A DNA stretch of 64,000 nucleotides from the NCBI GenBank assembly GCA_934086145.1, contig CAKOHV010000004.1, positions 2,354 through 66,353 on the forward strand, written 5' to 3'. The notes under the pieces were generated by a model. The model was not told where the DNA came from. It made no database searches and worked only from the letters and a program-made list of their open reading frames with translations. Of this stretch, positions 14,358 to 33,185 are shown one piece after another (position 1 is the first letter of the stretch; each line of letters begins with the position of its first letter). The translations under genes were made by a program, and so were the position numbers. Source of the stretch: an uncultured Bacilli bacterium (GTDB taxonomy: Bacteria > Bacillota_I > Bacilli_A > RF39 > UBA660).

Positions 14358-15377
14358 CTATTTATTCTTTTTTTTAAACACAATTAATTTACTAAGAACG
14401 TAATTAACAATTGTCACAATTACTTGCGAAATTATTTTACCAATCTTATCATTCCAAGTAAATACTGAAACAATTAAAAACATTGTTAGCATATCTAAAA
14501 GTAGGCTAAAGACACGTGCTCCAACAAACGAAGACACTTCTTTTAAGTAATTTTTTTCCTTACTTTTAAAAACATAAATTCGATTAGTTACATAAGCAAA
14601 GCCTACCGCAATTACCCATGATATAATATTAGCCATTTGTAATTCCAAACTATTACTTGGATCTAAGAATGTTGTTGTACAGATAAAGTATGTTCCTAAG
14701 CTAACTATTGTCGTTAAGCCCCCCACAACTAGGTAGTTCCATAGTTCTTCATTCTTATGATATATTCCTAACCCCCAACGCCACAATCTAACAATTATAT
14801 TTGGTTTATATTCATAGTAATTAAACAATTTATCTTTCTTTACTAAAATACCTTCTTTAGCTTCTTCAATCAAAGGCAAATCATTGATAGAATCCGTATA
14901 CATCTTATTAACTATTGCTTTAGGATACTTTTGATAAAGATTTATTACCTTTTGCTTTCCATGACAATTCTTGCCCTTGACTTCTCCTGTTATTTTATCA
15001 ATATCCGTAGCCATTAAATCATAAACTTTATATTTTTTAGCAATCGGTTCTAACCAAAAGATCCCCGATGCCGATATTATTATATCTTTTTTATGATTTT
15101 TTTTCTCGACCCAAAAGGATTTTAATTTATGTTCATGTTTTTCCCAAAATTTCAAGACCATACTATCAACATCCGGTATATCTTGTAGAAATGAAAAAAA
15201 GGTACTTTTTAATTGTTCTTTTGAACATAATTTTAATAAATAACAGATGACCATGCCCAACATCTTTGGCAATCTTCTAATTATTTTAGGATATTTTTTT
15301 AAACAGAAGAGAAATAAATCAACTCCCGAATCCCCATCATATATGGTTCCATCAAAATCATATATATCATATTTCAC
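14358..15377 (-). CDS. HAD-IB phosphatase fused to a GtrA-family membrane domain
   Basis: GTG start. N-terminal DFDGTIYDGDS (HAD motif I). The C-terminal ~130 aa has four TM segments (NYLVVGGLTTIVSLGTYFI...VFKSK...IVFKKK), typical of GtrA. Confidence 0.7.
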   Translation of the reverse strand: MKYDIYDFDGTIYDGDSGVDLFLFCLKKYPKIIRRLPKMLGMVICYLLKLCSKEQLKSTFFSFLQDIPDVDSMVLKFWEKHEHKLKSFWVEKKNHKKDIIISASGIFWLEPIAKKYKVYDLMATDIDKITGEVKGKNCHGKQKVINLYQKYPKAIVNKMYTDSINDLPLIEEAKEGILVKKDKLFNYYEYKPNIIVRLWRWGLGIYHKNEELWNYLVVGGLTTIVSLGTYFICTTTFLDPSNSLELQMANIISWVIAVGFAYVTNRIYVFKSKEKNYLKEVSSFVGARVFSLLLDMLTMFLIVSVFTWNDKIGKIISQVIVTIVNYVLSKLIVFKKKNK

Positions 15378-15466
15378 TATATCACTTCCAAACTTCCTTT
15401 ATTATACCATGATAACGCCTTTTTAAAAAGCAACAAAAGTACCACGTCTTGTGATACTTTTATCTT

Positions 15467-15946
15467 TTAATTTTCATCGATTAATTTTTCAACTAAAGAA
15501 ATCATATTACTTGTATTACTTTTATATTTTTTTGGTTTAAATTTTTTTACTTTCTTTAAAGCTTCACCTAGATTATCTAAATCTTCTACGCCAATAATAT
15601 TACCATTTGCCGAAAATTTTTCAATTATTTGTTTTTGATGATCATTAACGTGTTCTCCATATTTAGCTAATCTTGGAACAGCAATAACTTTTTTATTACA
15701 TTTTAAACCAGTAATAATACTCCCAACTCCCCCATGGGTAATTAATAAATCACATTGTTTCATTAACTTATCAAATTCTTCCATAGGAATTAAATCAAAT
15801 ATTTGCATTTTATCTGTTTCATACTTCGTACATCCAGCCTGAACGACAACTTCATCTTGAATATTACCATTTTCTATTTCTCGTAATACTGCGTCAAGAA
15901 GTCTTGTAAATGGTTTATCTTGAGTTCCTAAAGTTACTAAAATCAT
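15467..15946 (-). CDS. Alg13-like glycosyltransferase subunit (PssE/Cps14G family, Glyco_tran_28_C)
   Basis: 159 aa. MILVTLGTQDKPFTRLLDAV...ITHGGVGSI matches the catalytic half of split Alg13/Alg14-type GTs. Confidence 0.8.
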   Translation of the reverse strand: MILVTLGTQDKPFTRLLDAVLREIENGNIQDEVVVQAGCTKYETDKMQIFDLIPMEEFDKLMKQCDLLITHGGVGSIITGLKCNKKVIAVPRLAKYGEHVNDHQKQIIEKFSANGNIIGVEDLDNLGEALKKVKKFKPKKYKSNTSNMISLVEKLIDEN

Positions 15947-15948
15947 TT

Positions 15949-17403
15949 TTATTCACCTTTCATTGTTTGATTTATTTTATCTTTAGCATCATCAATTGTT
16001 TTTTGAATCGGATTCATAACATAAGTTAATTGTTTAGGAAAACTAGCTGTATAATTTTGACCATCACTACCATTGACACTAATATTAGTTACCGTCCATG
16101 AGCTCATTGTTTCTAATTGGTTTCTAGCAATTCCTTGAATATCATCCATCTTTATATTAGTAGCAACATATGGCTTAATTGATTTTAAAATATCATCATA
16201 TTTTAATAAGTACTTCTTATCACTTGATATTTTTTGAATAATTGCTGCCATTACATCAGCTTGATTTTGTCCACGATGACGATCTCCCGTACTGTATGCA
16301 TATCTTTCACGTGAATAAGCTAGAGCTTTTTCCCCATCCATATGATTTACTCCTTGTTTAACCGTCCAACCTCTTTTATGGAATGATTTAAAAGTTTTAT
16401 CACTGTAAACATCAATTCCATCAATGGCATCGACAACACTTGTTAAAGCCTTAAAATTAACCTTTACATAAGCATTAATATTAATATCAAAAATATCTTC
16501 AACAGTTTTCATAGAAACATCAATACCATATAATCCAGCATGAGTAAGTTTATCTTTCATTCCTGTTGTTCCATGAACTAAAACATAATAATCACGTGGA
16601 ATACTAACTAATAAAATATTATGATTCATGGGATTAATAACAGCTAAAATATTAACATCACTTAACCCAATTGGTGAAATATATCTCGTATCACGGGTAT
16701 CTAGGCCACTTATATAAACAATAAAAGACTTCCCAACATCTATCGTTGATTCCGTCCTATCGACCTTTCCCGTTACAACAACTTCCCCAACTTTTTTTAC
16801 CAATTCCATAAAACTACTATTTTCTTCTAATAACAAATCATAAATAGTCGAACTAACAACCATACCATCTATTTCATTTAATTCTAGATCATACATCATA
16901 TTTCCAACAGAATCATAATCTTCATATTCTAAACTAACTTGCTTCCCTATTTCTTTTTTTAAATCATCACTATTTTGCTTTATTATTCCAGTTTTATGTC
17001 CCTTTAAATCACTCAAAGTATTATACTCATCACTTTTGATAGTTAAAACATAATATGTCGTCTTTTCTTCAACAACACTAACCATATCTTCCAAAATATT
17101 TATGGTCTTATTTACATAACTAGTCCCCATACCAAAAGCAATCCCTAGTAACATAACTAAAATAAAACCAATAACATTTAAAATCTTATTTTTAAATAAA
17201 ATAAAGAAATCACATATTATATTAAGAACTACTACTAACCCTATAATTCCTAATAAATACTTATTTGGTAACATCTTTGTCTTAACTAAAGATAATACTA
17301 AAATACATGAAACTACCAAAAAAAGAAAAGAAATAAATATCTTTACATAGCTATATATGGTCATTTTCTTTTGCTCTGCTTTATTATCACTCTTTTTCAT
17401 CAT
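15949..17403 (-). CDS. LCP (LytR-CpsA-Psr) family glycopolymer-peptidoglycan ligase
   Basis: N-terminal TM segments plus an LCP core (ILLVSIPRDYYV...GEKALAYSRERY...GDRHRGQNQ). Start moved to ATG 17403 (RBS GGGGGA), 8 nt after the stop of the upstream gene. Confidence 0.85.
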   Translation of the reverse strand: MMKKSDNKAEQKKMTIYSYVKIFISFLFLVVSCILVLSLVKTKMLPNKYLLGIIGLVVVLNIICDFFILFKNKILNVIGFILVMLLGIAFGMGTSYVNKTINILEDMVSVVEEKTTYYVLTIKSDEYNTLSDLKGHKTGIIKQNSDDLKKEIGKQVSLEYEDYDSVGNMMYDLELNEIDGMVVSSTIYDLLLEENSSFMELVKKVGEVVVTGKVDRTESTIDVGKSFIVYISGLDTRDTRYISPIGLSDVNILAVINPMNHNILLVSIPRDYYVLVHGTTGMKDKLTHAGLYGIDVSMKTVEDIFDININAYVKVNFKALTSVVDAIDGIDVYSDKTFKSFHKRGWTVKQGVNHMDGEKALAYSRERYAYSTGDRHRGQNQADVMAAIIQKISSDKKYLLKYDDILKSIKPYVATNIKMDDIQGIARNQLETMSSWTVTNISVNGSDGQNYTASFPKQLTYVMNPIQKTIDDAKDKINQTMKGE

Positions 17404-17410
17404 TTTCCCC

Positions 17411-17905
17411 CTAATAAATCCATCCACCATAAATGGCATTAGGATAATATTGTAACATACTTTCCCATTGTACAATAAAATAATCAGCAAATTTATAAAT
17501 TATTTTTCCCGCTTTAGTTGGACTTGAGTTATTAGCGAATGTTTCAATAAATATTACTTTTTTACCAAATAATTTAGCTAAGCAACACATCGGTCCAACG
17601 TTATGAGAACCTGTTGTTACTACAAAATCTGGACGAATTTTAATCATTAAGTATAATGATATCCAACAATTAGCAAATAACTTAAATAAATAAGTTAATT
17701 TAGCACGAAATGTTGTATAAGTTCCCGATATTATATAATGTACTCGCCCCGGATATTTTACCTTAAGTCCCATATTACTTTTGGTCTTTTCCGTTACAAT
17801 TGTATAATCATACTTCGTAAAACAAGGGGCTAGTTGTAATAACTCACTTAGATGTCCCCCTGTACTAGCAATAAACATAACTTTTTTTTGCTTTTTCTTT
17901 GCCAT
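17411..17905 (-). CDS. Alg14-like glycosyltransferase membrane-anchor subunit (PssD/Cps14F family)
   Basis: 164 aa. MFIASTGGHLSELLQL is the typical Alg14-like signature. Confidence 0.8.
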   Translation of the reverse strand: MAKKKQKKVMFIASTGGHLSELLQLAPCFTKYDYTIVTEKTKSNMGLKVKYPGRVHYIISGTYTTFRAKLTYLFKLFANCWISLYLMIKIRPDFVVTTGSHNVGPMCCLAKLFGKKVIFIETFANNSSPTKAGKIIYKFADYFIVQWESMLQYYPNAIYGGWIY

Positions 17906-17920: not shown

Positions 17921-18889
17921 CTAATTTTGGCGATTTTTTTCAACCTGAAAGATCAATGAAGCTATCATCTTATTAAAATACTTTAAATAAAGTCCTTTCT
18001 TGCTCTTTTTTAAATACTTATTCTTCTTATACTCAGGAAAATTTTCTTTTACTTTAGTTAAAGCATAATCAACAGCTTCTAAATACTTTTTCTTATCTTT
18101 ACATTTAGCCATTCTCTTAATAAATGTTGCTAAAGAATACCTTACATAAACATATTCTAACTCTTCATAGTATTCATCAAATAAATTATGCTCTTTATAA
18201 TACTTAAAAATAGAATCAAAATTATTTACCATATCATATAATTTTTCATTAAAAGTATAGGTAATCGAACCTTCCCTTTGCATATATTCATAATAAAAGC
18301 CATCAACAACGCCTATTCTGTTTACATTAGGCAACAAACGATACATAAATTCAACATCTTCATAGGCAACGCCCTTTTTAAAGCTCAAATCTTTAAATAA
18401 CTTTCTTTTATATATCTTGTTACATGCGGCCGGATAAAAATCATACATTTGTGCTTTAATAGCTTCTTTACCAATTAAATCATCTAAATAGCCAGGTGTA
18501 ACATCAACTTCATGGTCTTTATAAATCATCTTAACTCCACAAGTCACCAGTTCAAAGTCACCTGCATAAGCCTTCTCAACCATGTCCTTAATAAAATTTT
18601 TATTTATCGTATCATCACTATCAATAAAAGCTAAATAATCTCCTTTGGCCTTACTTATTCCTGCATTTCGGGCATCAGATAAGCCACCATTTTCCTTATC
18701 AATAACCTTAATTAAATCAGGATATTTTTTTTCATAATCTAAACAGATTGCCAAAGTATTATCTTTCGATCCATCATTTACCAAAATAATTTCCATATCG
18801 TCTATTTTAGCTTTTAAAATACTCTCAATACAAGCCTTCAAATATTTTTCGACATTATAACACGGAACTATTACACTCAATTTAATCAT
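17921..18889 (-). CDS. Family 2 glycosyltransferase
   Basis: LSVIVPCYNVEKYL...VNDGSKDNT...IDSDD are the GT2 (GT-A) motifs. Confidence 0.85.
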   Translation of the reverse strand: MIKLSVIVPCYNVEKYLKACIESILKAKIDDMEIILVNDGSKDNTLAICLDYEKKYPDLIKVIDKENGGLSDARNAGISKAKGDYLAFIDSDDTINKNFIKDMVEKAYAGDFELVTCGVKMIYKDHEVDVTPGYLDDLIGKEAIKAQMYDFYPAACNKIYKRKLFKDLSFKKGVAYEDVEFMYRLLPNVNRIGVVDGFYYEYMQREGSITYTFNEKLYDMVNNFDSIFKYYKEHNLFDEYYEELEYVYVRYSLATFIKRMAKCKDKKKYLEAVDYALTKVKENFPEYKKNKYLKKSKKGLYLKYFNKMIASLIFQVEKNRQN

Positions 18890-19106: not shown

Positions 19107-19979
19107 TTAAATTATATATAAAATTATAAATAAAGTGAACATGTATATTACAATAACAGTAATCATTATTTTATTTGATAAAATCACTTCAATGGGATCA
19201 CCATGAGAGTCACCTTCAATATCAAGACTATATAATTGAAATACTACCATTATAATAGGAATAGTCCAAAACAAATAGTCATTACCTATTCTATTAATTG
19301 TTGAAGCATCAACACACCATAATGAATAGAAAGCAACAGATAAAACTAAAGAAACATACATATTTTTATCTAAAAATTCTTTATTATATAAAGCTAATAC
19401 ACTTCTACTTTTCTTACCATTTTTTATAATTTCATTTCTTCTTTTTCCAAAGCCCAAGAAAAAAGCGCCAAATATAACCATTAAATATAAGAATTTAGAC
19501 ACAGCAACATCTATAACTACACCACCATACATGACTCTCATTACAAAACCTGATACTAATATTACTACATCAATAATAGGAACATTTTTTAATCCAAAGC
19601 TATACAAAATATTAACAAAAATATATATTAATGGAATTCCAAAAACCAACCAATTATGATTTAGATAAAACAAATATGATGAAGTAATAGCTATTAAACT
19701 AACTAATACAACAATTGTTACATAAGCCATCTTAATTGATATAGCACCACTTGCTAAAGGTCTATTCTTTTTTACTGGATGTTTTCTATCTTTATCAACA
19801 TCATTTATATCATTTATGACATAAACAATAGATGCAGATAAAGAAAAACAAATAAAAGCAATTACACAAGTTAATACCATATTCAAAGTAAATAAATTTA
19901 AACTAAAAAATAATGGTAAAAATACTAATCCATTTTTCAACCAATGTTTTACTCTTATTAATTTAATATAATCTTTCAT
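19107..19979 (-). CDS. UbiA-family polyprenyl-phosphate phosphoribosyltransferase (decaprenyl-phosphate phosphoribosyltransferase-like)
   Basis: 290 aa and polytopic. The N-terminal IRVKHWLKNGLVFLPLFFS and the NDINDVDKDRKHPVKKNRPLASG Asp-rich motif match the DPPR-synthase (Rv3806c-type) branch of UbiA prenyltransferases. Confidence 0.7.
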   Translation of the reverse strand: MKDYIKLIRVKHWLKNGLVFLPLFFSLNLFTLNMVLTCVIAFICFSLSASIVYVINDINDVDKDRKHPVKKNRPLASGAISIKMAYVTIVVLVSLIAITSSYLFYLNHNWLVFGIPLIYIFVNILYSFGLKNVPIIDVVILVSGFVMRVMYGGVVIDVAVSKFLYLMVIFGAFFLGFGKRRNEIIKNGKKSRSVLALYNKEFLDKNMYVSLVLSVAFYSLWCVDASTINRIGNDYLFWTIPIIMVVFQLYSLDIEGDSHGDPIEVILSNKIMITVIVIYMFTLFIILYII

Positions 19980-20029
19980 TACAAGAACCTCCTACTTTCA
20001 AAATAATTATATAACAAATAAATAAATTT

Positions 20030-20053
20030 AAAAAGTCGAACATTCGACTTTTT
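20030..20053. terminator. Short bidirectional hairpin terminator
   Basis: AAAAAGTCGA-acat-TCGACTTTTT, overlapping the stop of the 842-aa gene. Confidence 0.5.
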
Positions 20054-22580
20054 AATAATCTTTTAACATTAAATACATTTCAGATGCGGTCCAAGCGTGT
20101 GATAAATATAAATCTTTTTCACAATAATATTCAGAAACAAAACATTCATTTTCTTGTTTATGATCTAGATAATCATTTCCACCTTCATAAGTTAAAGGAT
20201 AAATTTCATCTAAGATAAATAATTTACCATAACCACTATAATGATAGAATCCCCAGTTAATGTAAGGATAAAAAGATGACGTTTGTACTAAGGAAGACTC
20301 CACTTTATGCTCCATATACCAAGTTAATTTACCATAAGCATCATCAACTAAAGGATAATCTAAATCAATATCAATACCTAATTTTTCGGCACCATATATA
20401 GCTAAACTTGTAGGATAATAAGTTTGAATAACACCATCTACCATACCACTGATATGATTTTGATCATCTTTTAAAACAGAAATTTCTTTAACAATTTTTT
20501 TAACTAAATCTTTATTATTAGCCTTAGTAGCTCCAATAATATACAATAATTCACCAAGATTATCCGGTTCATTAATATCTGATGCCCTTGAATTATCATA
20601 AACTTTAATTAAATTATCAACCCAATCAAGAATCAAATTTGTATTATCAGAATATTCTAATACCTTAACAACCATCATAGCATCTCTATAATAAGCTTGA
20701 GTATACCCCCAAATATTTGGCTTAGGCTCCGAGCCATCTATATTAAATAGTACTTCTTGATGCAAAACTTTTAAAACTTCAGAATATTTTTTATCTTCAT
20801 ATTCAGGTAAATTTATTTTAGAACCTAAAGTTAATTCTTCTTCTTGATTATTAGTATATAAATAAACTCCATTTTCGTTTTCTGTTATTCTATAAACATT
20901 ATCTCCATCTTTCAATATAACAGTATACATATTAGGAATTATTTTTTCGTAATCAAAGTTAAATTCTTTAATAACTTCACCAGTGTAAGCATCTAATAAT
21001 TTTCCATTTTTATATACCATTTTATTTCTATCTGCCATACCAAAGAAATAAACTCCTATAGGATTTTCAGTATCTTCGTATGACTCAATCATAAAGGCAT
21101 TTTTCAATTCTTTTAATTGCTTTTCGTAAATATTAAATTCGTTTTCATATTCACAAATAATATCACAATTATCTTCTTTTTTATCGTAATTAATGATACT
21201 ATAAAAGCCAAACATTAATAACAAAATAGCCAAAGAAGAAATTAACTTATAAATTTTTTTATCAAAAATAAACATAACAGCAACAATTAATAATATTAAA
21301 ATAATTAGAAATGGTAAAATTCTTAAATGCTCAACAGGATTAAATCTAGGTAGTAATGTTAAATACATCATAACAATACCTCTTAAACTCATTACAATAA
21401 CTATACCTATGGAAAATATATTAATAATTTTATTATTAAACAACTTTATTTCTAACTTATCAACTAAATATCCTAGTAATAAAATTAATAAGAAATTAAA
21501 ATGACAAACATATAAGAAAGCAATTGAATTACCATAAAACAAATGAAGACATATATTAAATAATAATGCAACCAATAACGCATAATATAATTTATCTTTC
21601 ATTATATTTAATCTAGTTTTAAAAATATACCAAACATTCATTACAATAAACGTAATAGTACAAATAATTGAAAAAACATTAGTTATAACTGAATATTTAA
21701 AAGTTAAATAAACTCCGGTTTTAGGTAAATATAAATTAGTTACATAAAAGGAATATCCAAATAAAACATTAACAATATTTAAAACTTTTTTTTCAGAAAA
21801 ACCTTTTTCAATATATAAATTTTCTTCACTTGTACCAGTAATAAGATCAGTAACATTTTTTGTAAAAAAGTTAGGGGCTGATTGCCATATTAAATTTTGA
21901 ATACAAGCTAAGAATACACTTAATGTTAAAGCAGACATACCAACTATTATTGTTAAAACAATTCTATTTTTATTTTTTTTATTTAATGTAACAACAAAAA
22001 ATAAAACTATAATAAATTGAACAACATTAGTTAACGTAACTGCTAAACTTCCAACACCTAATAAGGTTAAAATAATATAATCTAAAAGTTTTAATTCTTT
22101 ATCCATTTTAACAGCCGCAAACACCCACATTAATGCTAATAATCCCTGAGCGAAAATATACGTTTCAATATTAGAACTAAATACAATTTGGCCAAAACTA
22201 GTTCCAAATAAAACTGTTAATAACATAATAGTATTATTCTTTAAATTAAACTTTTTCAAAACAGAATATACCGACACTAAACTAATAGATGCAAAAACAC
22301 TTTGAATAAATAAACAAGATAAAGCATTATCCCTAAAGAAATATCCTAATATTTTACAAACAGGTTGAAATAAAATAACAAATAATGGATGAACTGTGGC
22401 TCTATAATGATTTGCTGTAAAAACAGTTAAATCTTCAAGAACTCTTGGAGTATCTACATCGAATAATACATTCCAAAAATTATATAATCCTAAACAATAA
22501 GAATATAATATTCCCAAAGAAAAATAAAATGCAGTTGCCAACAGGAATATTGATATTTCTTTTTTATATTTTTTTAACAT
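20052..22580 (-). CDS. Large polytopic membrane protein (GT-C-like candidate) with ~380-aa extracytoplasmic C-terminal domain
   Basis: 842 aa with RBS GGGTGG. About 12 predicted TM segments in the first ~460 aa, with an early loop FDVDTPRVLEDL. The soluble C-terminal domain ends ...LSHAWTASEMYLMLKDY, which looks alpha/alpha-barrel-like by eye. Confidence 0.5.
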   Translation of the reverse strand: MLKKYKKEISIFLLATAFYFSLGILYSYCLGLYNFWNVLFDVDTPRVLEDLTVFTANHYRATVHPLFVILFQPVCKILGYFFRDNALSCLFIQSVFASISLVSVYSVLKKFNLKNNTIMLLTVLFGTSFGQIVFSSNIETYIFAQGLLALMWVFAAVKMDKELKLLDYIILTLLGVGSLAVTLTNVVQFIIVLFFVVTLNKKNKNRIVLTIIVGMSALTLSVFLACIQNLIWQSAPNFFTKNVTDLITGTSEENLYIEKGFSEKKVLNIVNVLFGYSFYVTNLYLPKTGVYLTFKYSVITNVFSIICTITFIVMNVWYIFKTRLNIMKDKLYYALLVALLFNICLHLFYGNSIAFLYVCHFNFLLILLLGYLVDKLEIKLFNNKIINIFSIGIVIVMSLRGIVMMYLTLLPRFNPVEHLRILPFLIILILLIVAVMFIFDKKIYKLISSLAILLLMFGFYSIINYDKKEDNCDIICEYENEFNIYEKQLKELKNAFMIESYEDTENPIGVYFFGMADRNKMVYKNGKLLDAYTGEVIKEFNFDYEKIIPNMYTVILKDGDNVYRITENENGVYLYTNNQEEELTLGSKINLPEYEDKKYSEVLKVLHQEVLFNIDGSEPKPNIWGYTQAYYRDAMMVVKVLEYSDNTNLILDWVDNLIKVYDNSRASDINEPDNLGELLYIIGATKANNKDLVKKIVKEISVLKDDQNHISGMVDGVIQTYYPTSLAIYGAEKLGIDIDLDYPLVDDAYGKLTWYMEHKVESSLVQTSSFYPYINWGFYHYSGYGKLFILDEIYPLTYEGGNDYLDHKQENECFVSEYYCEKDLYLSHAWTASEMYLMLKDY

Positions 22581-24837: not shown

Positions 24838-25608
24838 TTATAATTGCTCAGCAAAACCTTTTTGCAACTTATTAAATATCATATAACCAATAACACATAA
24901 GATTATACCTATTATAAACAATACTCCTAAGCCACTTAAATCCGGAACAGTTTTATCATAAAATATTGCTCTATATCCATTTATAACATAAGCCATTGGA
25001 TTAAATCTCATTATCCATTGATAATCAGCAGGAATTCTCCCAGATGCATAACATATTGGAGTTGCATAAAATAATAATTGCAAAGCTACACCTACGAAAT
25101 GTGCTAAATCTCTAACATATACAGTTATAGCAGATAATAAAAATGCAAAGCCTAAAGTCACAACAAATTGTACTATTAAAATTAATGGATAAAATAATAT
25201 ATGCCATGAAAATCCATAACCAGTTAATAAAATAAAAGCTAAAATAATCACAGTTGAAATAATGAAATTAACACATTCACTTGTTACAACAGATATTGGC
25301 AAAATTTCTCTTGGAAAGAAAACTTTTTTTATAATTCCACCATTTTCAATAATGGTAAAAGCAGCTTTATTAATTGCAGTCGAAAAAAACAACCAAGGAA
25401 TCAAACCACAAACTAAGAAAATCACATAATTATCATCTGTTTGCATTATTAATGGAAAAACCAATGCATAAACAGCAATTTGTAATAGAGGATTTAAAAA
25501 TGACCATATTACACCTAAAAATGAATTTTTATATTTACCTCTTATTTCTTTACTTACGCTAGTTTTTAGCAATTCTCTATAATCATATAATCTTTTAAAT
25601 ATATTCAT
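24838..25608 (-). CDS. ABC-2 type polysaccharide/teichoic acid export permease (TagG/Wzm-like)
   Basis: 256 aa, six TM segments. The N-terminal ELLKTSVSKEIRGKYKNSFLGVIWSFLNPLL is typical of this family. Confidence 0.85.
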   Translation of the reverse strand: MNIFKRLYDYRELLKTSVSKEIRGKYKNSFLGVIWSFLNPLLQIAVYALVFPLIMQTDDNYVIFLVCGLIPWLFFSTAINKAAFTIIENGGIIKKVFFPREILPISVVTSECVNFIISTVIILAFILLTGYGFSWHILFYPLILIVQFVVTLGFAFLLSAITVYVRDLAHFVGVALQLLFYATPICYASGRIPADYQWIMRFNPMAYVINGYRAIFYDKTVPDLSGLGVLFIIGIILCVIGYMIFNKLQKGFAEQL

Positions 25609-25616: not shown

Positions 25617-26357
25617 CTACCTAGTAGCCTTTAGATATGCATCAACAACTTCATCTGGTTTAGCATCCATTTTTATTTTACCATCACATAACCAAACAGC
25701 TCGATCACATAATTCTTTTACTTGCCCCATACTATGTGTAACAAAAACCATTGTTTTTCCTTCATCACGTAATTCTTTCATTTTAGCTAGACACTTTTCT
25801 TGAAAATGTTGATCTCCTACGGATAGAATTTCATCAACTAAAAGTATTTCGGCATCAACATTAATAGCTACTGAAAATGCAAGTCGCATGTACATTCCAG
25901 AAGAATATGTTCTAACAGGATTGTCAATGTAAGAACCAAGTTCGCTAAATTCAATAATTTTATCTAATCTTTTATCAATTTCTTTTTTTGATAAACCAAA
26001 AATTGAAGCATTAAAATAAATATTTTCGCGTCCACTAAAATCAGGATGAAATCCTGCTCCTAGTTCTAGTAATGAAGTAAGCTTTCCTCTCGTAACAATT
26101 TTTCCTTTATTAGGGAAAATTATTTGCGTCATCAACTTAAGTAAAGTTGATTTACCACTTCCATTTGTTCCTATTAATGCCACACATTCTCCTTTTTTGA
26201 CCCTTAAATCAATGCCATCAAGAACAACTCTTTTTTCTTTTTTATTTCTTGAAAACATGGAAAGAATACTTTCTTTTAAAGTATTTGATTTATCTAAATA
26301 AACATCAAAAGTTTTATAAACATTTTCACAAACAATGCTATACTCACTCTTACCCAT
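25617..26357 (-). CDS. ABC polysaccharide/teichoic acid export ATP-binding protein (TagH/Wzt-like)
   Basis: Walker A GTNGSGKST, signature YSSGMYMRL and Walker B LLVDE. Confidence 0.9.
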   Translation of the reverse strand: MGKSEYSIVCENVYKTFDVYLDKSNTLKESILSMFSRNKKEKRVVLDGIDLRVKKGECVALIGTNGSGKSTLLKLMTQIIFPNKGKIVTRGKLTSLLELGAGFHPDFSGRENIYFNASIFGLSKKEIDKRLDKIIEFSELGSYIDNPVRTYSSGMYMRLAFSVAINVDAEILLVDEILSVGDQHFQEKCLAKMKELRDEGKTMVFVTHSMGQVKELCDRAVWLCDGKIKMDAKPDEVVDAYLKATR

Positions 26358-26424: not shown

Positions 26425-27435
26425 TCAACCAGCAAACTTCTTTATTTTTATTTTATCAATCAATTTATATACACTATATAACATCAATGAAATTAAAACT
26501 GTATAAGTTAAGTTTAAAATAAATAATAAAGCCAATTTTATAGCCCAAACCATTTCAATTCTATAACAAAAAGGTAATAATAAAGAAGAGCCTACACCTT
26601 GTGCAAAATAAAATAAAATAGCATTTTTACCTATAGTACAGATAATATTATTTTTTACTTTATAAGTAGAATTAAAATACCACATAGTAACAATAGATAA
26701 CAGAGAATACGTAAAATAAACAAAATTAAAAGCTAATTTATAATTTTGCATTAAACTAAAAGAATAGTCCGTTTTTAATAACAACATAACACAAAATAAA
26801 GATAAAGAACAAAATATAATAATAAACTTTTTGAAACTCAAATTATTATTATAAGCATAATAGCCTAATAAATATATAATTATAAAGAATGTCATTTTTT
26901 TAAAAAATAACACGCAAGGAATTGAAATAAAATTTAAAATCAAATAAAACACTAATATCATTATAATAAACCAAATTAAATTTTTCTTGGTATTAACAAT
27001 TTTATTAACACAAAAAATAAAAATAGAACTTAAAAATGAAACAAAAAAATACATAGGCATAAACCACATAGATCCACCTACAACCTGAAGTGGCATTGTA
27101 TCTGAATACTTAAATAGTAAACCATTTTTAAAATTTTCAAAATTAAAACTATTATAATCAAAATATAAAACAAATAACATGTAGATAGCAAAGAAAACAA
27201 TATATTTAAAATATAATTTTGCTAAAACCTTAATTGTTTTTTTTACACTATTTGAATAATTATACGTCATACCAGATATAAATATAAATAAAGGCACATC
27301 AATAAATAAAGATAAACTTTTTACATTTTGCGGAACATACCCTTCTCCACTCCAAAAGCAACAATGTATAAATACAATCCATATTGCCGCAAATCCCCTA
27401 TAAAAATCCAAATTATAGTTTCTACTTTTTACCAT
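26425..27435 (-). CDS. Acyltransferase family 3 membrane protein (O-acetyltransferase-like)
   Basis: Polytopic. LDFYRGFAAIWIVFIHC is the N-terminal motif of acyltransferase_3. Start moved to ATG 27435 (RBS GGTGG). TGA stop. Confidence 0.75.
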   Translation of the reverse strand: MVKSRNYNLDFYRGFAAIWIVFIHCCFWSGEGYVPQNVKSLSLFIDVPLFIFISGMTYNYSNSVKKTIKVLAKLYFKYIVFFAIYMLFVLYFDYNSFNFENFKNGLLFKYSDTMPLQVVGGSMWFMPMYFFVSFLSSIFIFCVNKIVNTKKNLIWFIIMILVFYLILNFISIPCVLFFKKMTFFIIIYLLGYYAYNNNLSFKKFIIIFCSLSLFCVMLLLKTDYSFSLMQNYKLAFNFVYFTYSLLSIVTMWYFNSTYKVKNNIICTIGKNAILFYFAQGVGSSLLLPFCYRIEMVWAIKLALLFILNLTYTVLISLMLYSVYKLIDKIKIKKFAG

Positions 27436-27491
27436 GCTTACCACCTTAAATACTATTAAATAATATAATACCATAAAAAGAATTTATTTTT

Positions 27492-27523
27492 AAAAAAATT
27501 ACAGTTCAGTCAAAGAATTGTAA
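27492..27523 (-). terminator. Intrinsic terminator downstream of the DUF285 pseudogene
   Basis: On the minus strand: TTACAATTC-tttgact-GAACTGTAA followed by T7. Confidence 0.5.
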
Positions 27524-27567
27524 CTTTTAAAAGGTGCCTTGAATGACACTTATCCCTAGATAGTAAC

Positions 27568-29074
27568 TTAATTTGTACTTACATTAACTGTTAATTTAGA
27601 TAAATTTAACTTCGTAAACAATGCTTTATCTTGATTAGTTCTTACTGTTAAATTCATTACTTGACCATTATTATTAACAAAATATTTTAAATTAGCTTTA
27701 TTATTAAAACTGGACTTACTCATTTTAACAGTATTTATTTTTACTACCAGCAAACATCGCTTCAGCAGTTGTAACACTTTTAACATCAAAATTTGGAAGT
27801 TAATAATTAGTTAAATTGCTAGTTCCAAAGAACATTCCCTCCATATACTGAACTGCTTGAGTATTAAAATTAGAAATATCGAGAGATACTAAGCTAGTAC
27901 AATTTGCAAACATTCCTTTCATATTAGTAACTCGTGCTGTATTAAAATTTCTTAAATCTAAGGACTTAAGGCTAGTAGATGGTGAATATCCGCTACTTCC
28001 AAACATATAACTCATATTAGTCACATAAATTGTATCCAAAAATGTTAAGTTATTAATTTCTTCAACTTCCGATAAACCATCTAAAAAGTAAGAACTATCT
28101 GGATTAGCATATAAATGTCCATTACCTTCAATGTATAAATCATAATAACCATTATAAGTTGAACTATTTTTTATATATGCTTGTACCGCTCCTTCATTTA
28201 TTCCATAATCCCATTTAGCAACAGCTCCTTCGGCATCAGTTAAATGATCTACCAATGTTATTGTTTTGATTTTTTCTGCATAGTTTGCATTTTTATAAGC
28301 ATAGTTATCATTAGCAAAAGTTCTTCTAATAACTGGTGCATCTAAACCATCTATTATATCGTTACGAATGTCATAGCCATACGGAACACGTAACGTCGTA
28401 TAGTAATAATTATTCGTTGTTTCTTGCATTGTCTCTTTATTAGACGTCGACTTATTATAATCAAAATACTGATACGTCTTTGTTTTAGCTTTTTTTAATT
28501 CCATAACTATGCGATACCCTGATGCTTTAACGGCTTCAGATGTTGAAACTCCCGTATAACCATCTAAGGTATATAAATAATTAACGGCACTAATTGATAA
28601 ATTTTGTAAGGCTTTATTTCTTTGACAATACAATGTCTTATCAGCTAAAGAACCACTTTGTTCATCGCAAGCTATTACTTCATTAACATCATAATGCATG
28701 AAAAAGACATGATTAATATCCATACTACCTTTTAAACTTTCACAAAATCCAGTCGAACTTGCTCAACCTGACGCTTCTGTGACACTTAAAGCATTACATC
28801 CAAATTCCACAATTGACAAAAATCGGTTGTCAGTACCAGATGTATTAGCAAATTTTGTATCAATAAACTCAGTTAAATTATTCCTTTCTAGGAAAGATAA
28901 ATAATAATATGTTCAATATAAATAAATAGGGTCATCATAAAATATTCTCGTCTTGGCATTATCCAAAACCGTTGTAAAAGCTGAATATACCATTAAAAGA
29001 GTCGTTGCTAAAAACGCTATAACAACCATTGTCTAAACCAAGATAAACCCCTTTGCCTTACTACACTTCATCAT
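27568..29074 (-). pseudogene. Decayed gene: prepilin-type N-terminal signal + BspA/DUF285-type leucine-rich repeat surface protein
   Basis: Own translation from ATG 29074 (RBS AGGAG): MMKCSKAKGFILV*TMVVIAFLATTLLMVYS.... There is an in-frame TAG at 29033-29035, TGA at 28913-28915, TGA at 28763-28765, and TAA at 27800-27802 inside a repeat. A frameshift in an A-run near 27735-27745 joins it to the 73-aa ORF. The repeats (VTNMSYMF, VTNMKGMFANCTSL, VQYMEGMF, AEAMFAGS) are DUF285-like. Confidence 0.65.
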
Positions 29075-29155
29075 ACATAACTCCTACACTACTTTAAGAA
29101 AAGTTTATCATAAAGAAAGCAATTGAAAGCCAACAATTGCTATTTATCTTTACTA

Positions 29156-29363
29156 CATGAATTTTAACTTGAATTTCCGCTTTTGGGTTAAAAACAAAAA
29201 TAAGTCTTAAAAACAAAAATCCCCTATAATTTTAAAGAGATATATTTTATCCTTTTTATCCCAAAATATAGACTTATTTCCGTTTCATATTTTCTTTTTC
29301 GAAAATAAGTCTTGTAATTTTAAATATTTTAATAAAAAGTGAAATTTACGCTAAAAATTCACC
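29156..29363 (-). mobile_element. MITE-like TIR-bounded repeat, long copy (A, 208 nt, with 105-nt internal insertion)
   Basis: The reverse complement aligns by eye to 48836-48937, at about 87% over the left 62 nt and about 90% over the right 39 nt. The ends GGTGAATTTT...AAAATTCATG are degenerate versions of the TIR of copy B. Confidence 0.6.
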
Positions 29364-29372
29364 CTGTATTTC

Positions 29373-30980
29373 TTATCGTGGATAATATGTAATAGCAAAT
29401 TCAATAATATTAATAAATTCTCTAATAGAAAAAAATCCAATACAAATAATAGCCATAATTGAAACACATGCAAACACATATTTATTCTTAAAAATTTTTT
29501 TCAAAAGCAAATAAAATAATACATAAAAAGCCCAACCAAAATATAGACTATACAATATTAATCCATTTTCAGAAGTACCCCATCCTATTATCATCAATAT
29601 AATAATAGAAAATAATATCCATAATATAGAAACTTTAGAAATAAATTCTTTTCTATTAATTATAAAACTAAATAATAATACAACCAAAATAATAATACCA
29701 ACATAATTAATAGAATTGAAATTAATTAATTGATAAGTTGGATACCAACCATTATCCAACCACACAATATGCCCTGTATTTGGAATAAATAACCCCTTAA
29801 TAAAAGAAGTATATTGACAAACCTTATTAAAAAAAGAAATTTTTTGACCACCAAATTCAGATAATAAAGAAAGAAAATCAGTAATCGATAATAATTGCTG
29901 TAATTGACCACTTAATATAACTACAATCATAAAAGCAATAAAACATCTAAATACATTTCTTAAATACATTTTTAGATTATCATATTTACAAATAAATGGT
30001 AATAAAACACCAGAAGTTAATAAAGAACCTGTCGCTCCAATATATGTATAATTAATCTTAAAATAATTATTGTTAAATAAATATATACATAGCAATAAAT
30101 AAAATACAGCAATAACATATTGCTCAAGCATAAATCCAAAAATAATAAAAGGATATGAAACAAATAGCATCAAATAAAAGATAATTTTTTCTTTACCATC
30201 AATTTTCATCAATTTAGAAAGCATTATAGCAACCAAAGATAAAATAAAAAATTGCATAATGATCATAAATAATTCATATACCACATTATCCGGTATAAAA
30301 AAGAACAAATCATTCATAATATGAGGAATAATCGAAAATGGTAAAGCAAAAACACCGAATAACGGTTGTCTTATGTCATTTTCAAGACAAGCAACATTAA
30401 ACCAAGTATCGTAAAAAGACAAATAACTACTATCAGAAGTATATATAATATCGTAATTCATATGAGAACCACCATAATAAGAAACTCCAAACGCTGTTGT
30501 TTTATAATTGATAAAAAAAGATAGATAGAAAGAAATAACTAAAACTATAAGCATAAAATATTTATCGATCTTATCAATTTTATTATATTCTTTTAATAAT
30601 ATTGGTTTAATCTTATTAACAATATAATTAATAATAAAAAAGATAGAAGGTAAACATAATATAAAAAATAAAACTATTATTAAATTATAATATTTGTCTA
30701 AAAAACTAATACTACTGAATCTATCGCAAAATAAATCAAAAGATATTTTAAAATATTTTAAATATAATTTATCAATATATAAAGTTAAAATACTTGTATA
30801 TATTATTTTTTTTCTAGAAAGTTTATCAAACTTATATTTAAACAATAATATAGATAAAACAATAAAAATTGAAATCATAGTAAAAATAATATTTTTTAAC
30901 GAATAAGGAACTAAAACAATACTAAAAATCATCCAAGAAATAATAATCATTATTTTTAAAAAAATTTCTTTTATTTTCAT
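29373..30980 (-). CDS. Large polytopic membrane protein (possible GT-C-type glycosyltransferase or polymerase)
   Basis: About 535 aa and almost entirely hydrophobic helices. RBS GGAGG before ATG 30980. No soluble domain and no recognisable motif. Confidence 0.5.
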   Translation of the reverse strand: MKIKEIFLKIMIIISWMIFSIVLVPYSLKNIIFTMISIFIVLSILLFKYKFDKLSRKKIIYTSILTLYIDKLYLKYFKISFDLFCDRFSSISFLDKYYNLIIVLFFILCLPSIFFIINYIVNKIKPILLKEYNKIDKIDKYFMLIVLVISFYLSFFINYKTTAFGVSYYGGSHMNYDIIYTSDSSYLSFYDTWFNVACLENDIRQPLFGVFALPFSIIPHIMNDLFFFIPDNVVYELFMIIMQFFILSLVAIMLSKLMKIDGKEKIIFYLMLFVSYPFIIFGFMLEQYVIAVFYLLLCIYLFNNNYFKINYTYIGATGSLLTSGVLLPFICKYDNLKMYLRNVFRCFIAFMIVVILSGQLQQLLSITDFLSLLSEFGGQKISFFNKVCQYTSFIKGLFIPNTGHIVWLDNGWYPTYQLINFNSINYVGIIILVVLLFSFIINRKEFISKVSILWILFSIIILMIIGWGTSENGLILYSLYFGWAFYVLFYLLLKKIFKNKYVFACVSIMAIICIGFFSIREFINIIEFAITYYPR

Positions 30981-31021
30981 AACAAACCTCCGTAAAAAAA
31001 TCATACAATAATAAAAAGTTC

Positions 31022-32101
31022 TTAGCTTTTTATTATATCTAAAATTTTCTTTTTAATATTTTCATTATATAAAATATAATCAAATTTTTTTTTCAATTTA
31101 AAGCCATTATCTAAATAATTTTTCATCATTTCATAAACAGCCTCTGTCGAAAAATCACAGAACAAACCATTTTGGCCATCCAAATCTTCCCAATCGCTAA
31201 CTTTCGTAGATAAAATTACTTTATTCATAATCATCGCTTCCAAGAACACAACAGGAAATCCTTCGTAATCACTTGCTAGTAACACCGCATCACTTATCTT
31301 ATAGTAAGGATAAGGATTACTTTTACGACCTAAAAATAAAATATCATCACTTAAATTAGCATCTTTTACTTGTTCTTTATACATTTCTGTATCCGGTCCA
31401 TCGCCAATAAACAATATTTTAAACTTATATTTTTCTTTTTTTAATCTAGCACTAGCTTCTATAATTCGTGATAATTTCTTCTGGTGTTCATCATGTCTTC
31501 CAACATTAACAAATAAAGGTACACCATCTTGTTTAACATAATCAACTTTTTCCTGGGCTTTTGTTAAAATGTTTTCACCATCTATATAGTTATTGCATAC
31601 CATGGCTTTATCTTCTATTCCTTCATAATGGGCACAAACATCTCTTTTATTTTCCTGAGATACAAAAACAATATTTTTAAACTTTTTAGCCATAACACCA
31701 TCTAAGAAGTTAACCATTTTTTCTTTATACAAAATATAGTAATTGCCATGCATCCACAATGCATTATTACTAGAAGCTGCTAAAGCAAGATGAGCTCCTG
31801 GTATCGAATAAGTGCAAAAAGAGCAACTAAAATCATACTTATTTTTTAATTGTGACTGCCATTTTAATAACTTCAATCTATTATATATTTTTCTTAAAAT
31901 AACTATTTTATTATCACTAATCTTATATTCTAATACTTTTACTTCCTTAGGTATTTGTTCTAAAAATATTCCTTCTTTTTTTTCTAAAATTAACGTTACA
32001 TCATACTTTTTATAATCTAATCTATTTAATAAATTCACTAAAGCCTTTTCAATTCCTCCCAGCCCTAAACTATATGCTGTAAATAATAATTTTTTAGCCA
32101 T
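31022..32101 (-). CDS. Family 4 (GT-B) glycosyltransferase
   Basis: GLGGIEKALVNL N-terminus, then GDGPD...SDYEGFPVVFLEAMIMNKVILS (E-x7-E). Confidence 0.85.
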   Translation of the reverse strand: MAKKLLFTAYSLGLGGIEKALVNLLNRLDYKKYDVTLILEKKEGIFLEQIPKEVKVLEYKISDNKIVILRKIYNRLKLLKWQSQLKNKYDFSCSFCTYSIPGAHLALAASSNNALWMHGNYYILYKEKMVNFLDGVMAKKFKNIVFVSQENKRDVCAHYEGIEDKAMVCNNYIDGENILTKAQEKVDYVKQDGVPLFVNVGRHDEHQKKLSRIIEASARLKKEKYKFKILFIGDGPDTEMYKEQVKDANLSDDILFLGRKSNPYPYYKISDAVLLASDYEGFPVVFLEAMIMNKVILSTKVSDWEDLDGQNGLFCDFSTEAVYEMMKNYLDNGFKLKKKFDYILYNENIKKKILDIIKS

Positions 32102-32108
32102 AAAACAC

Positions 32109-33185
32109 CTATTTATTTATAATTTCTTTCATCAATTCTTGTTCATCTTTAACATCAGTTTCTAATACTTTTCCGTATTCACTATGTTCTAAGATTGTTT
32201 TAGCTAATAACTTAGAACAATCAACATCATGATACCATTCTAATTTTTTTATTTCATCCGGAACATAAGTTAAGTTAGTTGAATACATTCGATCAAATAA
32301 TCCTTCATCATATGCTTTTTGTAATTTATCAATTCCTGCTGAGAATAAAGCAAATGTTGCTATTAAAAATATTTTTTTAGCTCCTCTACTTTTTAATTCT
32401 TTAGCAACATCTAACATCGAGCCACCAGAAGCAACCATATCATCTATTACTAAAACTGTATAATCTTTAGGGTCTTTCCCTAAATAAACATGTTCTACTA
32501 CCGGATTCTTGCCATTAACTAATTTCGTTAAATCCCTTCTTTTATAGAAAAGTCCTACATCACAACGTAAAATTTCCGCATAATAACGAGCTCTTTCCAT
32601 AGCTCCCATATCAGGACTGATAGTTAACATTTTTTCTTTGTCTATCTCTTCATTTTTAAATATTTCTTTAATTATAGTTTCTGTAGCAAAAACATTTTCA
32701 AAGGGTAAATTAGGAATAGCATTCGAAACATTAGGATCATGACAATCAAAAGTTATAATATTATTAACTCCTAATTTTTCTAGTTCTTGCAAAGCTAAAG
32801 CACAATCCAATGATTCTCTTTCTTTTCTCCTATGTTGCCTTGATTCATAAAGTAACGGCATAATAACATTAACCTTTTGAAATTTTCCATTGGCAGCGCA
32901 AATAACCCGCTTAATATCTTGATAATGCTCATCAGGAGCCATATGGTGGATTGTTCCATGAAAATCATAAGTTATACTATAATTTCCAACATCAGACAAA
33001 ATATATAAATCTTTATCTCTAATTGATTCTTCTATATATAACTTACCTTCTCCATTATTAAAACGACTTGCTTTAACATTAACTAAAGAACTACCTTTTT
33101 TCTTAGTCATCTCATTTATATAAGTATCTACTTTTTCTCCTAAATCTTTACAATTTTCAAATGCAATTATTTTTAAATCACTCAT
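32109..33185 (-). CDS. prs: Ribose-phosphate diphosphokinase (PRPP synthetase), long paralog embedded in the glycan locus
   Basis: 358 aa with RBS GGGAGGAA. PRPP-binding loop VLVIDDMVASGGSM, PLLYESRQHRR flexible-loop region and ISPDMGAMERA. Confidence 0.8.
   Translation of the reverse strand: MSDLKIIAFENCKDLGEKVDTYINEMTKKKGSSLVNVKASRFNNGEGKLYIEESIRDKDLYILSDVGNYSITYDFHGTIHHMAPDEHYQDIKRVICAANGKFQKVNVIMPLLYESRQHRRKERESLDCALALQELEKLGVNNIITFDCHDPNVSNAIPNLPFENVFATETIIKEIFKNEEIDKEKMLTISPDMGAMERARYYAEILRCDVGLFYKRRDLTKLVNGKNPVVEHVYLGKDPKDYTVLVIDDMVASGGSMLDVAKELKSRGAKKIFLIATFALFSAGIDKLQKAYDEGLFDRMYSTNLTYVPDEIKKLEWYHDVDCSKLLAKTILEHSEYGKVLETDVKDEQELMKEIINK

Follow-up and report, generated by a model that had tools for sequence, protein, structure and literature searches.

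The DNA analysed here (the window) is a stretch of 64,000 nucleotides from an uncultured Bacilli bacterium (lineage RF39; UBA660), taken from GenBank assembly GCA_934086145.1 (contig CAKOHV010000004.1, positions 2,354 to 66,353 of the forward strand). The window has a G+C content of about 27%, and every gene between 9.7 and 38.7 kb is on the minus strand. Within this array, five genes were examined as a putative route that makes a lipid-linked pentofuranose from phosphoribosyl pyrophosphate (PRPP) and transfers it outside the membrane:

14358..15377, minus strand: fusion of a HAD-IB phosphatase and GtrA (HAD part, residues 1 to about 195; GtrA part, residues about 205-339); PF12710 and PF04138, TIGR01488.
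19107..19979, minus strand: predicted polyprenyl-phosphate 5-phosphoribosyltransferase (PPPRS) of the UbiA family, similar to Rv3806c and the decaprenyl-phosphate phosphoribosyltransferases (DPPRS); PF01040, NCBIfam DPPRS models, PDB 8j8j.
20052..22580, minus strand: candidate membrane glycosyltransferase of the GT-C fold, 842 aa, with a C-terminal soluble domain of about 340 aa; AlphaFold2 and Foldseek.
29373..30980, minus strand (longest open reading frame (ORF) to 31004, 543 aa): second candidate membrane glycosyltransferase of the GT-C fold, 535 aa; AlphaFold2, Foldseek and hhalign.
32109..33185, minus strand: PRPP synthetase of the PRK06827 subfamily, 358 aa; NF005299.

We consider it likely that these genes form a three-component-type extracytoplasmic pentofuranose system, a kind of pathway established in Citrobacter youngae (Kelly, Duong, Nothof, Lowary and Whitfield, PNAS 2024; PMC11127046), and that the system is embedded in a wall-glycan locus whose polymer is exported by an ABC transporter and anchored by an LCP-family ligase.

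All four features named in an earlier note on this DNA were confirmed at the coordinates given there, and the computational checks it had proposed favoured its interpretation. The UbiA-family protein (290 aa; PF01040, E 6e-23) contains both motifs that the earlier note had quoted as a DPPR-synthase signature. Its top NCBIfam models were the three DPPRS models (E 5e-59 and 2.5e-57 for the best two), followed by the HAD-UbiA fusion model; the UbiA, CyoE and MenA models gave 50 bits or less, which is 150-180 bits under the DPPRS models. In a search of all PDB sequences the best match was Rv3806c of M. tuberculosis (8j8j, E 2e-36), and the next was a 4-hydroxybenzoate octaprenyltransferase (4od4) at E 2e-4. 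A total of 3,085 database proteins matched at E ≤1e-10.

The residues of Rv3806c that bind Mg and the ribose, 5'-phosphate and pyrophosphate of PRPP have been defined by cryo-electron microscopy (PMC10994848). The contact set was R22, K28, Y70, N73, D77, K87, R90, Q135, Y138, K143, Y157 and K208. When the window protein was aligned to 8j8j, nine of these 12 contacts were identical: R9, K15, Y53, N56, D60, K70, R73, Y126 and K131 (in order, Rv3806c R22, K28, Y70, N73, D77, K87, R90, Y138 and K143). The changed contacts were Q135 (N123), Y157 (F145; the same Tyr-to-Phe variant occurs in some mycobacteria, PMC10994848) and K208 (Ser, with R192 and K190 adjacent). The mapped positions were invariant across 17 homologues of 64-93% identity, and the NDxxDxxxD motif was kept (N56-D57-x-x-D60-x-x-x-D64).

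These results bear on whether the protein could be a quinone, heme or other aromatic prenyltransferase unrelated to PRPP. It does fall in the UbiA superfamily, but the prenyltransferase models trail by the 150-180 bits given above, the gene stands in a glycan-synthesis context, and the phosphoribose contacts are conserved here; such sites are reported not to be conserved between Rv3806c and UbiA-superfamily enzymes (PMC10994848). An aromatic prenyltransferase is thus most improbable and already effectively refuted. By homology, the protein is an Rv3806c-like enzyme of predicted PPPRS type, far from the quinone and heme prenyltransferases, and in the clade check that the earlier note had proposed (Rv3806c against MenA, UbiA and CyoE) it grouped with Rv3806c and kept the PRPP-contacting residues. 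Separately, a UbiA/PPPRS homologue (35% identity, E 2e-44) was found at 4874-5746 of MT837543.1, a 6.6-kb 'Bacteriophage sp.' contig from human faeces; this was the sole phage record with such a homologue, and it recalls the phage-encoded candidate system of Kelly et al.

The gene at 14358-15377, described earlier as a HAD phosphatase fused to GtrA, was found to be exactly that: one ORF of 339 aa with a HAD domain (residues 5-170, PF12710) and a GtrA domain (residues 215-334, PF04138). The HAD domain scored above the TIGR01488 cut-off for HAD-IB and its DxDGT motif was intact (DFDGT, residues 7-11). The gene is about 3.7 kb from the UbiA gene, in the same co-directional gene array. It is proposed to encode a polyprenyl-phosphate-ribose-5-phosphate 5'-phosphatase joined to a candidate flippase. 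Searched alone against PDB sequences, the HAD domain matched one uncharacterised HAD at E 0.04 and nothing else.

When the fusion protein was searched against 1.84 billion cluster representatives, end-to-end fusions accounted for 36 of the 150 best matches. Also recovered were four HAD-GtrA proteins extended by another large region (640-900 aa) and many large membrane proteins that begin with HAD or with GtrA. The triple-type fusions (P0291, P0307, P0333, P0364; P0335, P0336, P0367, P0381; P0147) have either HAD and GtrA followed by a further 300-570 residues, or GtrA at the N-terminus of proteins of 830-1025 aa. Such fusions suggest that the three functions act as one unit.

For comparative genomics, 80 loci were compared, each with a gene for a UbiA relative (44-94% identity); they came from Bacilli, Clostridia and a small number of other phyla. 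The closest relatives were on contigs of metagenome-assembled genomes (MAGs) of uncultured gut 'Bacilli', including locus L001 from a Hadza gut metagenome (UbiA 94% identical); more distant relatives were labelled, among others, Mycoplasma sp. CAG:877, Candidatus Fimihabitans and Coprovivens, names that suggest small-genome Bacilli of the RF39/RFN20 type. A HAD-domain gene was the immediate neighbour of UbiA in 46 of the 80 loci and was within three genes of it in 51. The HAD domain stood alone in 24 loci; elsewhere it was fused to GtrA as in the window (11 loci), to the membrane domain (about 500 aa) of the family termed cluster 2 (16) or to a member of the 535-aa family (one). Cluster 2 was the commonest UbiA neighbour family. 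A candidate GT-C gene was present within two genes of UbiA in 56 loci, a GtrA-domain gene was found in 22, and members of the 535-aa family adjoined UbiA in at least eight. The nearest non-identical relatives of the 535-aa protein (P0149 and P0150, 728 aa) carry an N-terminal HAD, and one relative of the 842-aa protein (P0147) carries GtrA. The fusion types seen were HAD with GtrA, HAD with the cluster 2 membrane protein, HAD with the 535-aa family, GtrA with the 842-aa family, and HAD and GtrA with a large region. Because the association of UbiA, HAD and a large membrane protein recurs in dozens of independent genomes, it is more than chance, and the recurrent adjacency and fusions add support to the mechanism put forward in the earlier note.

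The module also occurs unfused. On plasmid pF27D of Lactococcus cremoris F.2.7 (L081, NZ_CP068515.2, 10596-13715), a Wzx/Wzy-type exopolysaccharide (EPS) cluster contains, in this order, genes for a hypothetical GT-C-like protein of 462 aa, DPPRS (44% identity), HAD-IB phosphatase and GtrA. By hhalign (E 3e-53), the 462-aa protein is a member of the 535-aa family. pF27D is a mobilizable dairy EPS plasmid; its GtrA is annotated at 83 aa and is possibly truncated.

Close relatives of the window differ in their GT-C genes. In L083, the closest relative, the gene order is the same and the proteins are 84-98% identical across the locus, without the 535-aa gene and the DUF285 fragment (window 27475-31004 against L083 12183-12427). 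Upstream of UbiA, the 842-aa gene is replaced by a gene for a 589-aa cluster-2-type protein in L083 and for a 591-aa protein in L001. The GT-C genes are thus the cassette that varies while the rest of the locus is conserved, a pattern to be expected of enzymes that determine surface epitopes.

The 842-aa gene is immediately upstream of the UbiA gene, and the 535-aa gene is about 9.4 kb from it. As claimed earlier, both products are very large polytopic membrane proteins, with about 12 hydrophobic segments each; the description needed one correction, since about 340 residues at the C-terminus of the 842-aa protein form a soluble region. Neither protein matched a Pfam or NCBIfam family, and profile searches of both families against PDB sequences gave nothing meaningful. 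Structures were predicted with AlphaFold2 from family alignments, with a mean predicted local distance difference test score (pLDDT) of 89.6 for the 842-aa and 91.9 for the 535-aa protein. With the 842-aa model, the top 17 Foldseek matches in the PDB were 16 GT-C enzymes and one GPI-transamidase chain; the GT-C enzymes included ALG12 (E 9e-4, target TM-score 0.49), AftB, ALG9, PglB, STT3, EmbA, Pmt4, AglB and ArnT. AftA was further down the list, and transporters were below the top 17 with a probability under 0.15. The six best matches of the 535-aa model were all GT-C enzymes (ALG12, ALG9, PimE, Pmt4).

Homology between the 535-aa family and the N-domain of the 842-aa protein was detected with hhalign (probability 95.8%, E 8e-9, 355 columns). 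In both proteins a long acidic loop follows the first core transmembrane helix and carries invariant Asp residues (D43 and D50 of the 842-aa protein, D183 and D202 of the 535-aa protein); GT-C enzymes carry the catalytic Asp in that first external loop (PMC11127046). Sub-threshold DUF6080 matches were obtained for 9 of 27 and 18 of 54 homologues of the two families, and sub-threshold PMT_2 matches for some. In the AlphaFold2 model, residues from about 500 to 842 of the larger protein are soluble and form a beta-sandwich (510-585) followed by a helical region; this domain had no identifiable family, the sole lead being DUF5648 at E 0.014. On the alternatives raised in the earlier note, the models of both membrane proteins are of the GT-C type and not those of transporters or Wzy polymerases, and their status as GT-C-fold glycosyltransferase candidates is well supported by computation. 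They would represent at least two unclassified GT-C families, as judged from the absence of Pfam and NCBIfam families.

Two further relationships were tried. That of the cluster 2 family (about 583 aa) to the 842-aa family was not established (hhalign probability 47% over 46 columns), and that of the window GT-C proteins to GT-C candidates from a Rhizobium locus (L137, described below) was not detected (hhalign probability under 1%). The GT2 enzymes at 36581-37522 and 33198-34079 were considered as GtrB-like polyprenyl-phosphate-hexose synthases and rejected, their similarity to ArnC and PgfS being confined to the generic N-terminal 100 residues; the first is without C-terminal transmembrane helices and the second has a hydrophobic C-terminus.

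In the locus, no GtrB/ArnC-like synthase was detected with Pfam, NCBIfam or the ArnC/PgfS comparison, so the UbiA enzyme is the sole recognisable source of a lipid-monophosphate sugar donor for the two GT-C proteins. It is unlikely, in our estimate, that only one of these proteins, or neither, uses the ribosyl donor, the other having a different lipid-linked substrate or a polymerase- or ligase-type role unrelated to UbiA. Such a split would suit the position of the 535-aa gene (about 9.4 kb from UbiA, in a strain-specific insert), the many donors served by GT-C folds, the lack of sequence matches to the Rhizobium GT-C proteins and the hydrophobic C-terminus of the GT2 at 33198-34079, which leaves a small chance of a GtrB-like role. 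It is opposed by the missing synthase and by the behaviour of both families in other genomes, where the 535-aa family adjoins UbiA and is fused to HAD, and the 842-aa family adjoins UbiA and HAD and is fused to GtrA.

The PRPP synthetase matched NF005299 (PRK06827) over residues 2-343 with 448 bits (cut-off 327). It had been called an unusually long and dedicated paralogue. The first description holds in comparison with class-I Prs, but a length of 358 aa is normal for the PRK06827 subfamily, whose profile has 383 positions. The second is likewise borne out only in part: close homologues sit in glycan loci, but the gene is not a conserved neighbour of UbiA, lying within 10 kb of it in one of the 80 loci. 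In a metagenome scan, most homologues of at least 70% identity with usable flanks were among glycosyltransferases or ABC exporters, or beside a 535-aa-family or GtrA gene. The glycan-context loci were L082-L085, L087, L088 and L090-L092, and L094 (59% identity) had the same context; homologues of 59% identity or less were mostly in unrelated, non-glycan contexts.

It is possible, though we think it doubtful, that this is the ordinary or only PRPP synthetase of the cell, in the locus by chance and not dedicated to glycan ribosylation. Small-genome Bacilli may have a single prs gene. The protein is a full-length, above-threshold member of a general subfamily, and the mostly non-glycan settings of the more distant homologues and the rarity near UbiA point the same way; the contexts of most homologues at or above 70% identity point the other way. 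The gene context fits a role in PRPP supply, and a dedicated paralogue is not thereby proven.

At 5586-12611 of L088 the PRPP synthetase homologue is beside a 680-aa protein, in which an N-terminal HAD of PF00702 type is accompanied by about 430 residues without assignment. A pyruvyl transferase and a GtrII-type GT-C are also present, and none of the neighbours was labelled as UbiA. The 680-aa HAD neighbour context recurs in L094 and, judged only by gene sizes, in L090; the GtrII-type GT-C is Pfam-confirmed only in L088. Loci of the L088 type may use a different PRPP-dependent ribosylation route.

The remaining genes of the locus were assigned as follows:

15467-15946, minus strand: Alg13-like protein; Pfam.
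15949-17490, minus strand: LCP/CpsA-like ligase, for attachment of the polymer to peptidoglycan; NF051849 CpsA, E 1e-81.
17411-17905, minus strand: Alg14-like protein; Pfam.
17921-18889, minus strand: GT2; Pfam.
22590-24854, minus strand: bifunctional GT2 and GT4, for polymer synthesis; Pfam.
24838-25608, minus strand: Wzm/TagG-like permease, for polymer export; Pfam, NCBIfam Wzm model.
25617-26357, minus strand: TagH/Wzt-like ATPase, for polymer export; Pfam, NCBIfam TagH/Wzt models.
26425-27474, minus strand: acyltransferase-3, for O-acylation; Pfam.
27475..29372, minus strand: flank of the strain-specific insert, with a DUF285/PARCEL-repeat ORF fragment (27800-28723) and non-coding DNA; Pfam, NCBIfam and L083 gene order.
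31022-32101 and 34081-35184, minus strand: cytoplasmic Leloir GT4 enzymes; Pfam, NCBIfam.
33198-34079 and 36581-37522, minus strand: cytoplasmic Leloir GT2 enzymes; Pfam, NCBIfam.
35181-36575, minus strand: O-antigen-ligase/Wzy-like membrane protein; Pfam, NCBIfam.
37580..38659, minus strand: WecA/TagO-like polyprenyl-phosphate GlcNAc-1-phosphate transferase, initiator of the backbone glycan; TIGR02380, E 2e-49.

The PRPP synthetase gene sits amid the GT2, GT4 and O-antigen-ligase-like genes of 31022..37522. From these assignments the locus is predicted to be an ABC-transporter-dependent wall-polysaccharide cluster, whose polymer would be made in the cytoplasm, exported and attached to peptidoglycan. 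The LCP ORF as listed starts at a TTG and overlaps the Alg14-like gene by 80 bases; its true start is probably an internal Met (MMKKSDNK...), making the protein about 30 residues shorter than listed. A promoter scan of 13-33 kb found promoter-like sites no more often than in shuffled controls. Terminator-like hairpins were located at 15432-15464, 20028-20055 and 29118-29141, and are not decisive for the operon structure.

Just upstream of the glycan locus, 38718-42650 encodes two large proteins, one with a cadherin-like beta-sandwich domain and the other with a type I dockerin, along with SH3_3 below the threshold. In a small-genome Bacilli MAG of this type, a dockerin would not be expected. 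A second LCP-family ligase (42790-44931, plus strand) and a Sulfatase-domain membrane protein resembling LtaS in architecture (46663-48801, minus strand) indicate further wall-polymer machinery beside the locus. The LCP ligases, the LtaS-like sulfatase-family protein and the TagGH-like exporter of the window show that polymers anchored to the wall are made by this organism.

The identity of the sugar was approached by searching for epimerases. In characterised systems, epimerase genes within the cluster decide between ribo-, xylo- and arabinofuranose (PMC11127046). No FAD_binding_4, short-chain dehydrogenase/reductase (SDR) or epimerase domain was found in the ORFs of the window (at least 100 aa; at least 80 aa within the locus), in agreement with the earlier remark that no DprE1/E2-like genes were visible; across the 64-kb window there was no DprE1-like gene, SDR or epimerase. 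A DprE1-like probe from Rhizobium L137 had no match in the six frames of the window, in the 80 UbiA loci or in 53 PRPP synthetase loci. The SDR probe from L137 gave strong matches only to two generic SDRs at locus edges, none of them in the window, and two Tsukamurella flavin adenine dinucleotide (FAD) oxidases used as probes had no matches in the six-frame translation of the window. The Rhodococcus and Tsukamurella loci themselves had no annotated DprE1/E2 in reach.

As no epimerase is encoded nearby, the delivered sugar is most likely D-ribofuranose. We give little chance to a variant of the same pathway in which epimerases with genes outside the window convert the lipid-linked ribose to arabinofuranose or xylofuranose. 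In known systems this core does come with DprE1/DprE2 or an SDR epimerase (PMC11127046), Rhizobium L137 has consecutive genes for HAD-UbiA, GtrA, an FAD oxidoreductase, an SDR and two GT-C candidates, and the 64 kb covered here are only part of the genome; yet the known epimerases lie in-cluster, with none in the window, and the L137 DprE1 probe was without a match in all the loci searched.

For the ribofuranose route, every catalytic step is inferred from the observed family and fold assignments, active-site residue conservation, gene linkage and fusion, and so are the identities of lipid and acceptor, the type of anomeric linkage and the action of GtrA as a flippase. The UbiA enzyme would convert PRPP to polyprenyl-phosphate-ribose-5-phosphate (step 1), and the cytoplasmic HAD-IB domain of the HAD-GtrA protein would remove the 5'-phosphate (step 2). 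The fused GtrA domain would then move the polyprenyl-phosphate-ribofuranose to the outer leaflet, or help it there (step 3), where the 842-aa and 535-aa GT-C-fold proteins would transfer ribofuranose onto the exported glycan or another surface acceptor (step 4). The PRPP synthetase encoded in the locus may boost the supply of donor (step 5).

Several results speak against this route. The UbiA protein scored below the NCBIfam equivalog cut-offs (200.0 against 207 bits for NF008978, 194.5 against 234 for NF008977 and 155 against 474 for NF008976), a marginal miss that fits a divergent, non-actinobacterial branch, in which the lipid probably has another length. The HAD domain is weakly similar to the HAD of HAD-UbiA fusions (NF006088, E 0.005), and a BLAST of it against the Rhizobium HAD-UbiA fusion gave no hit. 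The Foldseek scores of the 535-aa protein are weak (ALG12 at E 0.03, TM-scores 0.43/0.47). The one locus in 80 with a PRPP synthetase within 10 kb of UbiA counts in the same direction, as a weak test, the two genes being 12 kb apart in the window itself. Flippase activity has never been directly demonstrated for such transporters (PMC11127046), GtrA included. The epimerase search covered 64 kb, and the rest of the genome could encode epimerases.

Beyond this route, we tentatively suggest, as a possibility and not as our expectation, that HAD-GtrA is a coupled 'dephosphorylate-and-flip' device that passes polyprenyl-phosphate-ribofuranose directly to interchangeable DUF6080-like GT-C cassettes founding new CAZy families; swaps of the cassette would give strain-specific ribofuranosyl epitopes on the wall polysaccharides of these uncultured, small-genome gut Bacilli, and the fusions would reflect a physical complex. 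Such a complex, if real, would be the first genetic handle on the actual role of GtrA proteins.

If the proposed pathway is correct, the PRPP-derived lipid-linked pentofuranose route would reach beyond mycobacteria and Gram-negative O antigens and serve wall glycans and exopolysaccharides in Bacillota, with hosts that include abundant uncultured gut Bacilli and dairy lactococci. The 842-aa and 535-aa types would define a minimum of two unclassified GT-C families, with the cluster 2 type of about 583 aa as a probable third, and the strain-variable GT-C cassette would be relevant to phage receptors and host recognition. The natural fusions (HAD-GtrA, HAD-GT-C and GtrA-GT-C) would tie the unproven GtrA 'flippase' to a defined substrate. 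The L. cremoris plasmid pF27D offers a cultured, tractable system for the pathway.

In architecture, the proposed system resembles Gtr-type and Gram-positive transmembrane glycosylation (GtrA/GtrB/GtrC; CsbB-YfhO, GtcA), in which a lipid-monophosphate sugar donor and a small GtrA-family membrane protein are combined with a GT-C enzyme that decorates a wall polymer outside the membrane. The donor synthase of Gtr-type systems is a nucleotide-sugar GT2 (GtrB/CsbB); the window has a predicted PRPP-dependent UbiA enzyme and a phosphatase instead.

With the mycobacterial decaprenyl-phosphate-arabinose pathway (Rv3806c, Rv3807c, DprE1/DprE2, Rv3789, Emb/Aft) the window shares a homologous first enzyme, a GtrA-family protein and candidate GT-C transferases, and mycobacterial AftB, EmbA and AftA were among the structural matches of the 842-aa protein. 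Unlike in mycobacteria, the phosphatase is of the HAD-IB and not the PAP2 type (compare L135 and L136), the window has no DprE1/DprE2, and the GT-C proteins are not related in sequence to Emb/Aft. The lipid is probably C55 rather than C50, and the outcome is probably decoration of a glycan rather than polymerisation of an arabinan.

The closest characterised parallel is that of C. youngae, where a HAD('PRP')-UbiA fusion makes farnesyl-phosphate-ribofuranose from PRPP and a GT-C enzyme adds the pentofuranose to the O antigen; in serotypes O1 and O2 the components are ORF15 (PRP-PPPRS), ORF14 (a predicted flippase of MATE type) and ORF12 (GT-C, the founder of GT136) (PMC11127046). The window shares with it an Rv3806c-like UbiA enzyme, a HAD-family candidate 5'-phosphatase, and the proposed export of the donor and its use by GT-C enzymes on a glycan made beforehand. 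Like serotype O1, the window has no epimerase gene, and ribofuranose is expected. The extra C-terminal soluble domain of the 842-aa protein has a counterpart in the carbohydrate-binding module (CBM) of ORF12 and, by analogy, could bind the acceptor glycan. The two systems differ in that the window HAD is fused to GtrA and not to UbiA, and in that the candidate flippase is GtrA and not a MATE-type protein; the Pfam scans of the window brought up no gene resembling ORF14. The window has two GT-C candidates with no CAZy or Pfam family and sub-threshold DUF6080 matches, a PRPP synthetase gene in the locus and, in place of the O antigen, presumably an LCP-anchored Gram-positive wall polymer as acceptor, and unlike C. 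youngae it has been characterised in silico only.

Ribofuranose can also be installed from PRPP by the cytoplasmic gPRT-PRP ribofuranosyltransferases with a HAD-family phosphoribose phosphatase (Kelly et al. 2022); these enzymes modify the glycan itself while it is in the cytoplasm, do not use a lipid-linked ribose and form beta linkages only (PMC11127046). The route proposed here likewise uses PRPP and a HAD-family phosphatase, but through a lipid-linked ribose, and no gPRT-PRP-type enzyme was recognised in the window. The 680-aa HAD-containing protein beside the PRPP synthetase homologue in L088, L090 and L094 might be of gPRT-PRP type.

A further comparison is with locus L137 (8323-15664) on plasmid pR132503 of Rhizobium leguminosarum WSM1325. 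Its compact seven-kb array encodes HAD-UbiA, GtrA, an FAD oxidoreductase, an SDR and a pair of paralogous hypothetical membrane proteins (about 520-540 aa), and looks like a complete arabinofuranose-type three-component system that uses GtrA. Window and L137 have in common a HAD phosphatase, GtrA, an Rv3806c-like UbiA (30% identity) and two large membrane proteins (paralogous in L137). In L137, unlike in the window, HAD is fused to UbiA, GtrA is separate, and a DprE1/DprE2-like pair predicts arabinofuranose.

The earlier note had held such a route to be uncharacterised in Bacillota. This is literally still true: literature searches gave no study that characterises ribofuranose, or the pathway, in wall polysaccharides of Gram-positive bacteria or in Lactococcus EPS, and no later work in Bacillota was found. 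The novelty is nevertheless smaller than implied, the kind of pathway having been established in 2024 with Gram-positive candidates; the three-component system was proposed to be widespread, the candidate loci include one from a Bacillus strain, and some use an SMR-family transporter (legend of Supplementary Information Fig. S12) (PMC11127046). What is new here is the HAD-GtrA fusion, GtrA in place of the MATE-type transporter, the strain-variable, unclassified DUF6080-like GT-C candidates and the embedded PRPP synthetase gene.

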